DNA from: Acidobacteria bacterium UBA2161
Lineage (GTDB): Bacteria > Acidobacteriota > Vicinamibacteria > Vicinamibacterales > UBA823
Assembly: GCA_002328835.1 (NCBI GenBank)
Contig: DCWN01000043.1
Location: forward strand, 17,740 to 81,739
DNA length: 64,000 bases
Direction of reading: 5' to 3'
Part shown: in pieces, positions 56,358 through 59,761 of the stretch
Layout of the letters: every line of letters starts with the position of its first letter
Numbering within the stretch: position 1 is the first letter of the stretch
The notes under the pieces: generated by a model
What the model saw: only the letters and a program-made list of their open reading frames with translations
Told to the model about the DNA's origin: nothing
Database searches by the model: none
Program-made: the position numbers and the translations under genes

Positions 56358-57545
56358 CTAGGCCAGACGCATGTGTTCGCTCAACCGCCGCCGGATCCCC
56401 TCGGCGCCGAAGTGGCGCAGCACCATCCAGAGCTTCAGCGCCCGGAATCGCCGCCCGAGCTGGAAGCCTGTGTCCATGAGGTTCTGCACGTCACCGGCTT
56501 CGGGGGTGCGCAGGTACTCGGGCGTCAGGGAGAACGCCGCGCGCACCACGTCCATCCGAGGCGAGAACAGGGCGCTCAGGTCGAACGGTGTGAAGAGCCA
56601 CTTGTGTGGGTTGATCACGACCGAGTCGGCGCCCTCGCAGCCGTCCAGAACGTGCGCGCAGCTGGGCACCATGGCCGCGACGCCGGCGTAGGCGGCGTCG
56701 ACGTGCAGCCAGATGCGCTCGGCCGCGCAGATCCGGGCGATCGCCGGCACGGGGTCGACGCTGGTCGTCGCGGTCGTGCCGGCCGTGGCCACGACCGCTA
56801 TCGGCAAGTGGCCGGCCTCCCGGTCCTCGGCGATCGCGCCCGCCAGATGCTCCGCTCGCATCCGGAAGTCCGCGTCGACCGCGATCTTTCTCAGCGCGCC
56901 GTGCCCGAGGTCCAGCAACATGACCGCCTTGTCGACCGACGAATGGGCCTGCTCGGAGCAGTAGACGCGGAGGCCGGAGAGATCGGCGCGCCCGGCGAGG
57001 CCGCGCTCACGGACGTCCGGCACCGCCGCTTCGCGCGCTGCCGCGAGCGCGTGGATGGTGGCCACCGACGCCGTGTCGTAGATGACTCCCTCGAACCCCT
57101 CCGGCAGCCTCACGAGTTGTCGGAGCCAGTCGAGGGTCAATCCTTCCAGTTCGGTGGCGGCCGGTGACGTCCGCCAGAGCATGGCCTGAACGTTCAATGC
57201 GGCGGCGAGCAGCTCGCCGATGACGCCCGGCGCGCTGCCACTGATGGCGAAATAGGCGAAGAAGCCGGGGTGGTTCCAATGGGTCAGGCCGGGCGTGATG
57301 ATCTGCTCGAAGTCGTCGAGGATCGCGTCGAAGTCCTCGCCGTGTTCGGGCGGTTCGGCGGGCAGGGCGGCGCGCACATCACCCGGCTGCACCTGGGTCA
57401 TGACCGGGTAGCGCTCGGAGTGGCCGAGGTAGTCGGCCACCCAATCGAGCGCGCGCCGTGCGTGCCGGTTGAAGGCCTCGGCGTCCATGTCGCCGAGGGA
57501 ACCCTCGGCGTCAGGCGAGCGTGGGCGCGTCGACTCGTCGGACAT
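56358..57545 (-). CDS. Group II PLP-dependent (aromatic-L-amino-acid-type) decarboxylase, reading frame as far as an in-frame TAG
   Basis: HWNHPGFFAYF, TAGTTATTSVDP, PLP-Lys motif VINPHKWLFTPFD. Ends at TAG comp. 56358-56360 after 395 aa, lacking the C-terminal small domain. Confidence 0.85.
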   Translation of the reverse strand: MSDESTRPRSPDAEGSLGDMDAEAFNRHARRALDWVADYLGHSERYPVMTQVQPGDVRAALPAEPPEHGEDFDAILDDFEQIITPGLTHWNHPGFFAYFAISGSAPGVIGELLAAALNVQAMLWRTSPAATELEGLTLDWLRQLVRLPEGFEGVIYDTASVATIHALAAAREAAVPDVRERGLAGRADLSGLRVYCSEQAHSSVDKAVMLLDLGHGALRKIAVDADFRMRAEHLAGAIAEDREAGHLPIAVVATAGTTATTSVDPVPAIARICAAERIWLHVDAAYAGVAAMVPSCAHVLDGCEGADSVVINPHKWLFTPFDLSALFSPRMDVVRAAFSLTPEYLRTPEAGDVQNLMDTGFQLGRRFRALKLWMVLRHFGAEGIRRRLSEHMRLA

Positions 57546-57547
57546 GC

Positions 57548-57577
57548 CTAGCAGCCCGCGGTGAGTGTGCCGCGGCT
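57548..57577. mobile_element. Solo arm of the CTAGCGG..GTGCCG TIR family, embedded in the 3' end of a gene
   Basis: CTAGCAGCCCGCGGTGAGTGTGCCGCGGC matches the TIR consensus. Its reverse complement is about 28/33 identical to the right arm of the mini copy at 35735-35765. No partner arm nearby. Confidence 0.55.
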
Positions 57578-58111
57578 ATACTGGCGGACGTACTCGAGGG
57601 CGAACTCCTTCAGGCCGGGCGAGCGCAAGCCGATCGTCTCAGCTTCGGCAGTGGCGCGGTCCACGTCCCAGCCGTCCAGCTTGACCCGCTTGATCAACCA
57701 CATCGCGCCGACGCGGTTCGCGGAGCCGCAATGCACGAATGTCGGCTGGTTGGTCGGGTCCGCGATGACCGCCAGGAACTCCTCGGCCACCGCGGCCGAC
57801 GGGTCCGACCCCCGGAACGGGAGGTGGAAGTACTTCAGGCCTATCGCCTCGGCCTTCTCGGCCGCGCCGACCGGGTCGGCGCCGTTCTCGCCCTCGGTGC
57901 GGAAGTTGACGACGGCGGCAAACCCACGCCGTTGCACCTCGTCGAGGGCGTCGAGCGTCGTGGCCCCGGCGCACGCCACCGTGGCGCCCACCTGGGTGTA
58001 GTTCCGAATACCGGGCACATCCTCTTTGGCCAGTTCTTGCGCGCTGACAGCCGTTGCGGCTACAAGGACAAGCGCCGGGATCAACGAACAGGTGACGTAC
58101 TGGGATCGCAT
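57548..58111 (-). CDS. Secreted DUF442-type (PTP-loop Cys) phosphatase/sulfur-transferase-like protein
   Basis: Signal peptide. Active-site-like FVHCGSANRVG. 187 aa. The last ~10 codons (SRGTLTAGC*) and the TAG are encoded by the repeat arm. Its stop is 2 nt before the decarboxylase ATG. Confidence 0.75.
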   Translation of the reverse strand: MRSQYVTCSLIPALVLVAATAVSAQELAKEDVPGIRNYTQVGATVACAGATTLDALDEVQRRGFAAVVNFRTEGENGADPVGAAEKAEAIGLKYFHLPFRGSDPSAAVAEEFLAVIADPTNQPTFVHCGSANRVGAMWLIKRVKLDGWDVDRATAEAETIGLRSPGLKEFALEYVRQYSRGTLTAGC

Positions 58112-58147
58112 GACCGAGAATTATAGCGCGTTCACAAGGAGGGTGGA

Positions 58148-58621
58148 GTGGCTGAACTGGTGCATACCAGCCGGATGCGGCTGGAGAAGATCAAGGGTCC
58201 GATCCGTCACGCGTACATCGAGAATTTCGATGAACCGATCCGCTTCGGGGTGCACGGCGGGATCAAGCACTTCTACGGCATCGAACCGGAGGAGGAACTG
58301 CCGGCCACCCTGGACCACATGGTCGCGGCCGTCGGCGGTTGACTGCTCGGCACCCTGGCCGGCGCACTGGAAGTGCGTCAGATTCCGTCGGGCGATGGTC
58401 GAGTCACGGCAACCGTCGAAGGTGACATCGAGGCGGTGGACAAGATCCTTCGCATCACGCGGATCCGGGTTCGGTATGCCTTGCGGATTCCCGCCGGCAC
58501 CCGCGCCGCCGCCGACCGCGCGCTGGCGACCCACGAGAGCAAGTGTCCGGCTGCGATGAGCGTGCGGGGCTGCATCGACCTGGTGATCACGGCCGACGTG
58601 ACGGAGGAAAAAGAAGTGTAG
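58148..58621 (+). CDS. OsmC/Ohr-family peroxiredoxin-like protein with in-frame TGA at the first conserved Cys position (candidate selenoprotein, or a nonsense pseudogene)
   Basis: GTG 58148 after AAGGAGGG. Track ORFs 58148..58342 and 58373..58621 share one frame, separated by TGA 58340-58342. The joined 157 aa read ..LDHMVAAVGG[TGA]LLGTLAGAL.. and ..THESKCPAAMSV.., matching the two OsmC Cys blocks. Confidence 0.7.
58361..58379 (+). promoter_or_regulatory. Candidate bacterial SECIS-like stem-loop downstream of the in-frame UGA
   Basis: GGCGCAC-UGGAA-GUGCGUC: 7 bp (one G-U), 5-nt loop with G at positions 2-3. The stem starts 18 nt after the UGA (58343-58360 intervene). Confidence 0.4.
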
Positions 58622-58645
58622 CGCGGGACTGCAGTCCCTCGCCTC
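58617..58645. repeat. REP-like hairpin filling the 24-nt gap between convergent stop codons (bidirectional terminator-like)
   Basis: GTGTAGCGCGGGAC-TGCA-GTCCCTCGCC. The TAG of the OsmC-like gene (58619-58621) is part of the TGTAGCGCGGG motif shared with 19330-19354 (rc) and 22445. Confidence 0.65.
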
Positions 58646-59761
58646 TTACCGATCCACCAACACCGCGACCGGTTCGATCAGACGGACCGTCAGCGTCATG
58701 CCCGGAAGCAGGGTCGTGCGGCTCCGGTCGCCGGTCATGACCGACGCCGTGCCGGTGGCCGCGCCGGCCGCTCCACCGACGGCCGCACCGCGCCGGCCCC
58801 CGAAGATTGCGCCGAGGATTGCACCGGTCACCGCCGCGCCCCCGATCGTCTTGGCGCTGCGTCCACCCTGTCCCTCGCCCTCGCGATAAACCGGATCGGT
58901 GACGATCGACATGTGCGTGCGGTCGGGCATCACGAGGGTGTGGAACCTGACACCGATCCGTGCGGTCTCGCTCATCCGACCGCCCTGCTCCACGAGCACG
59001 ACGGAGCCTTGCAGCTGCGCGCCGGCGGGGATCGCGACGCGTTCGCCGACGAGCACGTCGCGCGCAACCGTCGCGTCGACGCGGTCCTCCACCTGTGCAC
59101 TCTCGCTACTGACGCGCGTCTCCAGCTCCAGACCGATGACCGAGTCGGCCGCGACGACCAACTCCTCGAGCTCCTCCAGGTCAAGGCGTGGCAAGTCGTC
59201 GCCGGTGGCGCGGGCCGTGGCGCCCGCGCCGCGGCCGACGGTTTCCAGCTCCATGTCTTCTGGCCAGGGTTGATCGAGGCCGATCCACTCGTCGGTCGCG
59301 CTTCGCGGCGCCTCCACGTCAGCCAGGGTTGGCGGTTCGACGGCGATCGCCTCGGGCGGCGTAGGTGAAGTCTCGGCACCGATCGCTTCCGGGGCTTCGC
59401 CTGGGTCCGGTTCTTCGATGTCGGGAGCCGTCACCGGCACGGTCTCCTCGAGGTTCCGCGTTTCCGGGCGCGGGCTGTCCTCGAGGACGGCGTCGACCGT
59501 CACGGTCGACTCGGCCGGCGGCTCGGTCGCTTCGTTGACGACGGTCTCGGTCGCCTCGACGGCCTGGGTCGGAGGCTCGATCGGCGCGGTCGGCAGCACA
59601 GGGGCGGCCGCTCGCGCGGTCTGGCCTGCTACCGCGGCCGCGCCGGCGTCGGCATCGTTCTGCCTGACAGCGAGGTAGGCACCCGTCCCGACCGCCACGA
59701 AGCTGGCCAGGAACAGCGCGCCGAGGGTCAGAGGTCTGGACAACATCAGCAACTCCTTCAT
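58646..59761 (-). CDS. Membrane-anchored protein: N-terminal TM, Pro/Glu/Ala-rich linker, C-terminal beta-domain plus glycine zipper
   Basis: 371 aa. TM LTLGALFLASFVAVGTGAYLAV. Acidic Pro-rich ~130 aa. The C-terminal ..VAIPAGAQLQGSVVLVEQGGRMSETARIGVRFHTLVMPD.. is followed by GGAAVTGAILGAIFGGRRGAAVGGAAGAATG. Confidence 0.65.
   Translation of the reverse strand: MKELLMLSRPLTLGALFLASFVAVGTGAYLAVRQNDADAGAAAVAGQTARAAAPVLPTAPIEPPTQAVEATETVVNEATEPPAESTVTVDAVLEDSPRPETRNLEETVPVTAPDIEEPDPGEAPEAIGAETSPTPPEAIAVEPPTLADVEAPRSATDEWIGLDQPWPEDMELETVGRGAGATARATGDDLPRLDLEELEELVVAADSVIGLELETRVSSESAQVEDRVDATVARDVLVGERVAIPAGAQLQGSVVLVEQGGRMSETARIGVRFHTLVMPDRTHMSIVTDPVYREGEGQGGRSAKTIGGAAVTGAILGAIFGGRRGAAVGGAAGAATGTASVMTGDRSRTTLLPGMTLTVRLIEPVAVLVDR

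Follow-up and report, generated by a model that had tools for sequence, protein, structure and literature searches.

Selenoproteins with an OsmC-like fold have been described from marine metagenomes. The OsmC-like selenoprotein family was reported from the Sargasso Sea in 2005, with three sequences belonging to COG1765 and carrying a UxxT motif, in which U stands for selenocysteine (Sec) (Zhang, Fomenko & Gladyshev; PMC1088965). Five sequences followed in the 2008 survey of the Global Ocean Sampling data (PMC2398784), and the family is listed in reviews of 2022 and 2026 (PMC9312934, PMC13188914). These sources agree with the first-pass annotation of the DNA analysed here, which held that such proteins are known only from computational surveys. 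Here, we discuss an OsmC/Ohr-type gene at positions 58148-58621 (plus strand) of a 64,000-nucleotide stretch, hereafter the window, of contig DCWN01000043.1 of Acidobacteria bacterium UBA2161, a member of the Vicinamibacterales. We put at roughly 0.87 the probability that this gene encodes a selenoprotein in which Sec, directed by SelB and a Sec insertion sequence (SECIS), occupies the peroxidatic position of a hydroperoxide reductase whose resolving residue is Cys133. The first-pass annotation had proposed a candidate selenoprotein from the OsmC gene, the UGA on the redox Cys and a SECIS-like hairpin, and the proposal is supported by conservation of the codon, by constraint on the frame past it and by tests of the hairpin.

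The window protein shares several features with the published OsmC-like selenoproteins. Both have the OsmC fold (PF02566), both keep the second Cys, and in both a predicted Sec, followed by Leu-Leu, stands in place of the first catalytic Cys where the central helix begins. In both, a short bacterial SECIS (bSECIS) candidate presents a G-containing apical loop about 20-25 nt after the UGA, and both are known from sequence alone. Nonetheless, the two differ in many respects. The window motif is U-L-L-G-T (UxxxT), whereas that of the published family is U-L-L-T (UxxT); relatives of the window protein carry U-L-L-G-T, U-M-T-G-T or U-M-M-G-T, and the UxxT of the published family, represented by NCBIfam model NF041052, was not found among them. 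Unlike the published family, the window protein has an N-terminal beta region of about 50 residues with conserved motifs of its own (HTSR, GVHGGIK). The hairpins are unrelated (GGCGCAC-UGGAA-GUGCGUC in the window, UGAAGCG-GUA-CGCUUCA in the published family), and the hosts differ, a Vicinamibacterales bacterium of 68% GC as opposed to an AT-rich marine organism. We made the link to the published family through AACY01145085 (..GIGF-U-LLTQ..), a sequence from the 2005 supplement, to which the window protein has only a local BLASTP match of 43 residues at 37% identity. A link by cluster membership to the representatives given in the reviews (MBR72571.1, MCS5647933.1) was not established, too few accessions being on record. 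Model NF041052, 'OsmC-related (seleno)protein' (OsmC_like_Se), has a cut-off of 95 bits and scores AACY01145085 at 157.4, the window protein at 17.4 and its Cys homologues at 19.8-25.3. By these sequence comparisons, the window gene belongs to an OsmC subfamily of its own, for which there is no matching curated model. The first-pass annotation had valued the locus as an assignable genomic example of an OsmC-like selenoprotein; this holds in part, since proteins of this kind have been in the catalogues from 2005 onwards and many examples exist in metagenome-assembled genomes (MAGs), but the subfamily is a separate one.

Among characterised proteins, the closest are OsmC of Escherichia coli and Thermus thermophilus (1qwi, 1nye, 1ukk; TIGR03562) and Ohr (1n2f, 6eb4; TIGR03561), which have the same fold (Foldseek TM 0.63-0.79). 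Both catalytic Cys columns of these two-Cys hydroperoxide reductases align with the window protein, and by analogy the same peroxidatic and resolving chemistry would be expected. However, sequence identity is only 10-19% and the peroxidatic residue of the window protein is encoded by UGA. The window protein scores 13.8 on TIGR03562 (OsmC proper), against a cut-off of 85.8; for TIGR03561 (Ohr; cut-off 88.85) no match was reported for it and its homologues reach at most 19.8. A second comparison is with the bacterial Sec-containing peroxiredoxin, AhpD-like and GPx proteins, in which Sec likewise occupies a peroxidatic or redox-active site, Sec and Cys forms are mixed within families with repeated switching, and the bSECIS lies inside the open reading frame (ORF) (PMC1088965, PMC13188914). 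These proteins have a thioredoxin fold, unlike the alpha-beta swapped dimer of OsmC and Ohr.

The window gene is a single gene of 157 codons, with a GTG start, an in-frame UGA as codon 65 (58340-58342) and a TAG stop (58619-58621). The ORF track had divided it into ORFs of 64 aa (58148-58342) and 82 aa (58373-58621), and the first-pass annotation had joined the two, as lying in one frame and separated only by the TGA and 30 open nucleotides; we confirm this arrangement. Around residue 65 the protein reads ..HMVAAVGG-U-LLGTLAGALEVR.., and the GTG start agrees with the N-termini of its homologues (MAEVVHTSR.., MGELVH..). The joined product had been taken for a full-length OsmC/Ohr-fold protein, and indeed it scores 41.3 bits on Pfam OsmC PF02566 (gathering threshold 27.5) over residues 54-145. 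The fold was modelled on the closest Cys homologue (P0003, 68% identical) rather than on the window protein: the AlphaFold2 model has a pLDDT of 93.3, its best 50 PDB matches by Foldseek are all OsmC, Ohr or OsmC-like proteins, and it superposes on 2onf with TM 0.79/0.86. The Cys of column 65 lies within the long central helix of this model (residues 54-76). In a profile-to-PDB alignment of Cys forms, the TGA column coincides with the Cys in the 'AGCF' and 'AACF' motifs of the T. thermophilus and E. coli proteins (1ukk, 1qwi), the first catalytic Cys of OsmC (E. coli Cys59). The second conserved Cys, Cys133 (TGT, 58544-58546), aligns with 'GCPVS' of the OsmC structures, is present in all 94 unique Sec-form genes and is invariant in the Cys-form alignment. 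By analogy, Cys133 would be the resolving residue, equivalent to OsmC Cys125. The two-Cys layout of OsmC is thus present, with one residue (the U/Cys column) on the central helix and the other in a C-terminal GCP-type motif, and the earlier claim of a TGA on the redox-Cys column with an intact second Cys is borne out by this alignment.

The first line of evidence for decoding of the UGA is its conservation. TGA occupies the column in 91 of 91 sequences (the window, 10 metagenome contigs and the representative genomes of 80 GTDB species), the relatives being labelled almost without exception Vicinamibacterales or Vicinamibacteria, and more distant homologues have TGC or TGT there; the first-pass annotation had proposed just this comparison of orthologues. 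Carriers of the gene include complete Vicinamibacterales chromosomes such as OZ244838.1, OZ252227.1 and OY760734.1. A protein search returned about 22 full-length homologues, 17 of which have Cys at the TGA column, together with many half-proteins that end exactly at ..AAVGG or ..AAVGA, or start 1-3 residues past the column. In a set of 92-94 unique Sec-form genes, the variation at codons +1 to +6 after the UGA is synonymous only: the stretch from +2 to +6 encodes Leu-Gly-Thr-Leu-Ala with 95-100% amino-acid conservation while its third positions vary freely, and Gly+3, Thr+4, Leu+5 and Ala+6 are conserved at 100% with free synonymous change. The frame past the UGA remains open for 89-94 codons in 94 of 94 sequences, with a dN/dS of 0.26 for this part and of 0.17 for the part before the UGA (dS about 1). 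Purifying selection thus acts on the sequence past the TGA, and translation passes through the UGA. The coincidence of TGA with the catalytic Cys column, taken with the comparative conservation, is far beyond chance.

The codons flanking the UGA are also nearly fixed, as GGT-TGA-CTG. In the region corresponding to 58337-58345 of the window, GGT directly precedes the UGA in 70 of the 72 sequences that encode Gly there, though Gly is GGC elsewhere, and CTG directly follows it in 86 of 87. This suggests that a U-UGA-C context has been selected for recoding efficiency.

The second line of evidence is a hairpin shortly after the UGA, at 58361-58379 (plus strand), with the 5' arm GGCGCAC (58361-58367), the loop UGGAA (58368-58372) and the 3' arm GUGCGUC (58373-58379). 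U and A of the loop may close, leaving GGA, so that the stem has 7-8 bp; the predicted free energy is -10.3 kcal/mol and the distance from UGA to loop 25 nt. The published bSECIS model requires a loop of 3-9 nt, an upper stem of 4-16 bp, a UGA-to-loop distance of 16-37 nt and a minimum free energy of at most -7.5 kcal/mol (PMC13188914, Fig. 2), as well as a G within the first two nucleotides of the loop, typically in the pattern N1-G-[G|U]-N-N2 (PMC13188914). The hairpin agrees with every one of these constraints, its loop fitting N1-G-G-N-N2, and the 7-bp stem and UGGAA loop that the first-pass annotation had judged SECIS-like are thus present and of the published kind. All seven pairs form in 85 of 92 unique genes and the loop starts with UGG in all of them; over 58 distinct sequences 98.3% of the cells are paired, falling to 4-67% when the partner columns are slid as a control. 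Synonymous entropy averages 0.24 bits in the hairpin codons vs 1.42 elsewhere (Mann-Whitney p = 2e-7), and each of the five four- or six-fold degenerate hairpin columns lies below every column outside the stretch from UGA to hairpin. The codon used is CTG for Leu+9 (92/92), GTG for Val+11 (87/88) and GCA for Ala+8 (85/92), whereas elsewhere in the gene Leu, Val and Ala are preferentially encoded by CTC, GTC and GCC. Compensatory changes are found in two pairs, C-G to G-C or the reverse (14 cells) and A-U to G-C (2 cells), the latter going with a Val-to-Ala replacement in an 'ALEAR' clade.

Comparison with Cys forms separates the hairpin from the peptide that it encodes. Fourteen metagenome genes with TGT or TGC at the column have nearly the same peptide as the Sec forms, but their loop Leu codon varies (CTC, CTA, CTT, TTG) and only 2-5 Watson-Crick pairs are left. 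Hairpins at or below -7.5 kcal/mol occur in 15 of 18 distinct Sec-form sequences vs none of 12 distinct Cys-form sequences. Conservation and constraint of the hairpin thus go with the UGA and are specific to the forms that have it. Four Sec forms (L095, L096, L098, L106) are nested among Cys forms (L092-L094, L097, L099-L108), from which they differ at about 20% of the amino acids (about 80% identity); what is left of the hairpin in the Cys forms is a weakened relic with many G-U pairs. This suggests recent Sec/Cys switching, with Sec-to-Cys conversions that left SECIS relics behind. A distant Sec clade (L120:9806-10276, L121:3514-3984; 68-69% GC), one cluster of which holds 596 member sequences, has TGA in the same column within ..VAG/VSA-U-MMGTLATVLAG... 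Its SECIS-like hairpin, CUGGCCA-CGGUGC-UGGCCGG, whose loop contains GGU and begins 19 nt past the UGA, lies in another peptide context; a hairpin therefore accompanies the UGA and not a particular peptide.

Three outlying copies were met in these comparisons. A MAG labelled Acidimicrobiia (L087, VFYY01000039.1) contains a copy of the Vicinamibacterales type at 71% amino-acid identity, whose hairpin GGCGCGC-UGGCG-GUUCGCC has one internal stem mismatch; mis-binning or horizontal transfer could explain its presence. One Cys-form copy (L110:764-826) has an in-frame stop 20 codons past the Cys (..ALEACSIPSEPN*), and a public entry with Trp at the column (P0021) has a scrambled C-terminus. These last two are decayed or low-quality copies.

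Taken as a selenoprotein, the window gene would work as follows. The UGA at 58340-58342 would be decoded by Sec-tRNA(Sec) delivered by SelB, which would be recruited by the in-ORF hairpin of 7-8 bp with its GG-containing apical loop, 25 nt downstream, and residue 65, at the peroxidatic position and the start of the long central helix, would be Sec. By analogy with OsmC and Ohr, the selenolate would attack a hydroperoxide to form a selenenic acid; this would be resolved by Cys133 into a selenenylsulfide, which a lipoyl protein or thioredoxin could reduce again as thiol donor. Three central elements of this scheme are inferred, namely that the inserted residue is Sec, that SelB binds the hairpin and that the enzyme is a peroxidase.

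Several observations weigh against this interpretation. Selenium incorporation has been experimentally shown for no OsmC-like protein. The hairpin taken alone is unremarkable, with fold z-scores of -0.27 and -0.72, and 113 of the 770 TGA triplets on the strand (about 15%) have a hairpin of at least 7 bp in SECIS geometry. As evidence, the hairpin that the first-pass annotation relied on is therefore strong in its comparative conservation but not significant as a single sequence in DNA of 68% GC. Moreover, it falls within the codons of a conserved peptide (ALEVR), and the strongest covarying pair (columns 28-46) parallels a covariation of Gly/Arg with Gln/Asp/Glu, which might have its cause in the protein. 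Rfam gave no SECIS match and no other meaningful one for the window at the gathering threshold or for 58250-58480 at E <= 10, an uninformative result, since to our knowledge the database does not include a general model of the bacterial SECIS. Neither a tRNA-Sec (ARAGORN) nor SelA, SelB or SelD (tblastn with E. coli queries) was found in the window and 119 relative loci (1.64 Mb), a search that reached about 1% or less of each genome (4-7 Mb) and whose negative is likewise uninformative. The window itself is devoid of tRNA genes and of Rfam matches at the gathering score. A screen of the window for other genes read through a TGA, based on the GC content of third codon positions before and after the stop, yielded nothing but off-frame junk and two genes that are simply adjacent; there is therefore no second selenoprotein in the window. 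In favour of the selenoprotein interpretation, the phylum has documented users of Sec: three selenoprotein families have been reported for Acidobacteria (PMC1794560), three selenoproteins for Occallatibacter riparius (PMC12013277) and [NiFeSe] hydrogenases for Acidobacteriota (PMC13582414). None of the reports on Sec use that we found is specific to Vicinamibacteria.

Among the rival explanations, the one that survives best is that the UGA is decoded, but not as Sec. A suppressor tRNA, such as an allo-tRNA or a SelB-using tRNA(Cys) of the selC* type, or leaky near-cognate read-through would then supply residue 65, which could be Cys, Ser, Trp or some other amino acid, and the hairpin would act as a stimulator of read-through. 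Translation through the UGA is established while the identity of the inserted residue is inferred. In most sequences C follows the UGA, and UGA-C is a weak termination context. The Sec machinery, as said above, was not located in the window and the 1.64 Mb of relative flanks, about 1% of each genome. Additionally, allo-tRNAs with nonsense-suppressor anticodons are known from Acidobacteria, and a selC* tRNA(Cys) acting as an opal suppressor from other phyla (PMC5389517). However, the UGA stands exactly on the catalytic Cys column, where TGT or TGC would give Cys at no cost. Its retention in more than 90 genomes would be understandable only with a product other than Cys. A general suppressor would also read the ordinary TGA stops, and the hairpin fits the SelB-type bSECIS model down to its G-G apical loop and its spacing. 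Finally, Acidobacteriota do have bona fide selenoproteins (PMC1794560, PMC12013277). We consider non-Sec decoding improbable. Its order-wide version, in which an acidobacterial allo-tRNA or selC*-like tRNA together with the SECIS-like hairpin would recode this one gene, in a structure-directed manner, to a residue other than Sec throughout the Vicinamibacterales, appears to us decidedly improbable as well.

A split gene is far harder to reconcile with the data. The second ORF would start at GTG 58373 with the GGAA or GGAG of the loop as its ribosome-binding site, and two chains would assemble an OsmC-like fold. Gene callers annotate two ORFs everywhere, the GTG at codon +11 is almost invariant and it is preceded by a purine-rich GGAG or GGAA. 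Yet the spacing from GGAG to GTG is 0-1 nt, too short for a Shine-Dalgarno sequence, and codons +1 to +10 would be untranslated although the amino acids of +3 to +6 are 100% conserved. Separate initiation of the 82-aa ORF at GTG is excluded because the ten codons between UGA and GTG behave as translated. Moreover, the break would cut the central catalytic helix (54-76 in the model) and remove the catalytic residue, and the Cys-form homologues are single chains. We regard this alternative as very unlikely.

The chance that the gene is a pseudogene, or that its TGA is a nonsense mutation or an assembly error, is slimmer still. There is a stop codon within a conserved domain, and a few related copies look decayed (the further stop in L110, the scrambled C-terminus of P0021). 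Nevertheless, the complete 474-nt gene including its TGA is identical in three independent records, as is the neighbouring gene: NCBI GCA_002687695.1, contig NZAY01000117.1 (178,770 bp), ENA ERZ27286384 (179,599 bp) and the JGI marine metagenome 3300020423. A sequencing or assembly error is excluded because these three independent assemblies are identical; the same locus was found in at least 16 further places. Likewise, a pseudogene is excluded because the downstream frame is open and Cys133 is kept throughout (94/94 each), the downstream dN/dS is 0.26 and the codons are constrained; 80 species-level genomes have TGA in the same column and no other lesion. Conservation of the TGA, dN/dS and the three identical assemblies together refute this explanation.

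That TGA is reassigned genome-wide (genetic code 4 or 25) can be dismissed as next to impossible: five public metagenome entries (P0001, P0002, P0004, P0013, P0021) show Trp at the Sec column, but the codon of P0001 is TGA (L007:443-445), its Trp coming from the gene caller's choice of code 4/25, and seven Pfam-supported genes of the window, namely those for COX1, an Na+/H+ antiporter, an M49 peptidase, an M28 peptidase, an FGGY kinase, an FAD-binding protein and an esterase, end at TGA with the expected lengths, which excludes a genome-wide change of code and upholds the earlier remark that TGA is an ordinary stop here. Known lineages with code 4 or 25 are unlike this genome of 68% GC. The Trp entries are an annotation artefact.

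Returning to the selenoprotein interpretation, its reach goes beyond a single contig. The subfamily comprises 337 clusters (50% identity, E <= 1e-10); the best 150 of the 337 comprise at least 42 full-length clusters with Cys, at least 26 of N-terminal fragments that stop at the Sec column and at least 21 of C-terminal fragments starting just past it. Gene callers in every assembly cut the gene into 64 aa and 82 or 92 aa, and in essentially every public record (NCBI, JGI, ENA; at least 80 species-level genomes and dozens of clusters at 50% identity) the protein appears either as a pair of 'hypothetical' fragments or with a false Trp. A Sec-aware family model would repair hundreds of entries. 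The Vicinamibacterales, which are abundant soil and marine Acidobacteriota, would be consistent users of selenium with a Sec-dependent enzyme for hydroperoxide defence. The same catalytic column of the OsmC fold has apparently turned to Sec in two separate subfamilies. We lean, with odds somewhat better than even, towards an independent origin of Sec in the two combined with a near-universal Sec form in Vicinamibacterales; if the Sec form is near-universal, the gene would be a lineage marker of the Sec trait in this order. Sec and Cys forms interleaved at about 80% identity, the latter with decaying SECIS relics, offer a clean system for the study of Sec/Cys exchange. Moreover, genome-assigned candidates, hosts with complete genomes and a compact SECIS provide openings for the first characterisation of an OsmC-like selenoprotein.

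The surroundings of the gene are conserved in part. At about 89% nucleotide identity, PCAK01000020.1 ('Acidobacteria bacterium NP133') runs collinear to the window. A Shine-Dalgarno-like AAGGAGGG (58136-58143, plus strand), read directly from the sequence, lies 5 nt before the GTG start, and a scan of 57900-58800 for promoters and terminators gave nothing useful. At most Vicinamibacterales loci (L001-L008 compared), a pyridoxal-dependent decarboxylase gene lies divergent and upstream of the OsmC gene. In the window (minus-strand region 56358-58111) and its closest relatives, a BLH_phosphatase/DSP-PTPase-like gene with a signal peptide (57548-58111) sits between the decarboxylase and OsmC genes, only 36 bp from the OsmC start. 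Downstream, a convergent minus-strand gene (58646-59761) encodes an Ala/Glu/Pro-rich protein of 371 aa with an N-terminal hydrophobic segment and weak Gly-zipper and TrbI-like Pfam matches. Between it and the OsmC stop (58621) lies a perfect 14-nt palindrome, GGGACTGCAGTCCC (58625-58638), which lacks a T-run and was not called by the terminator scan.

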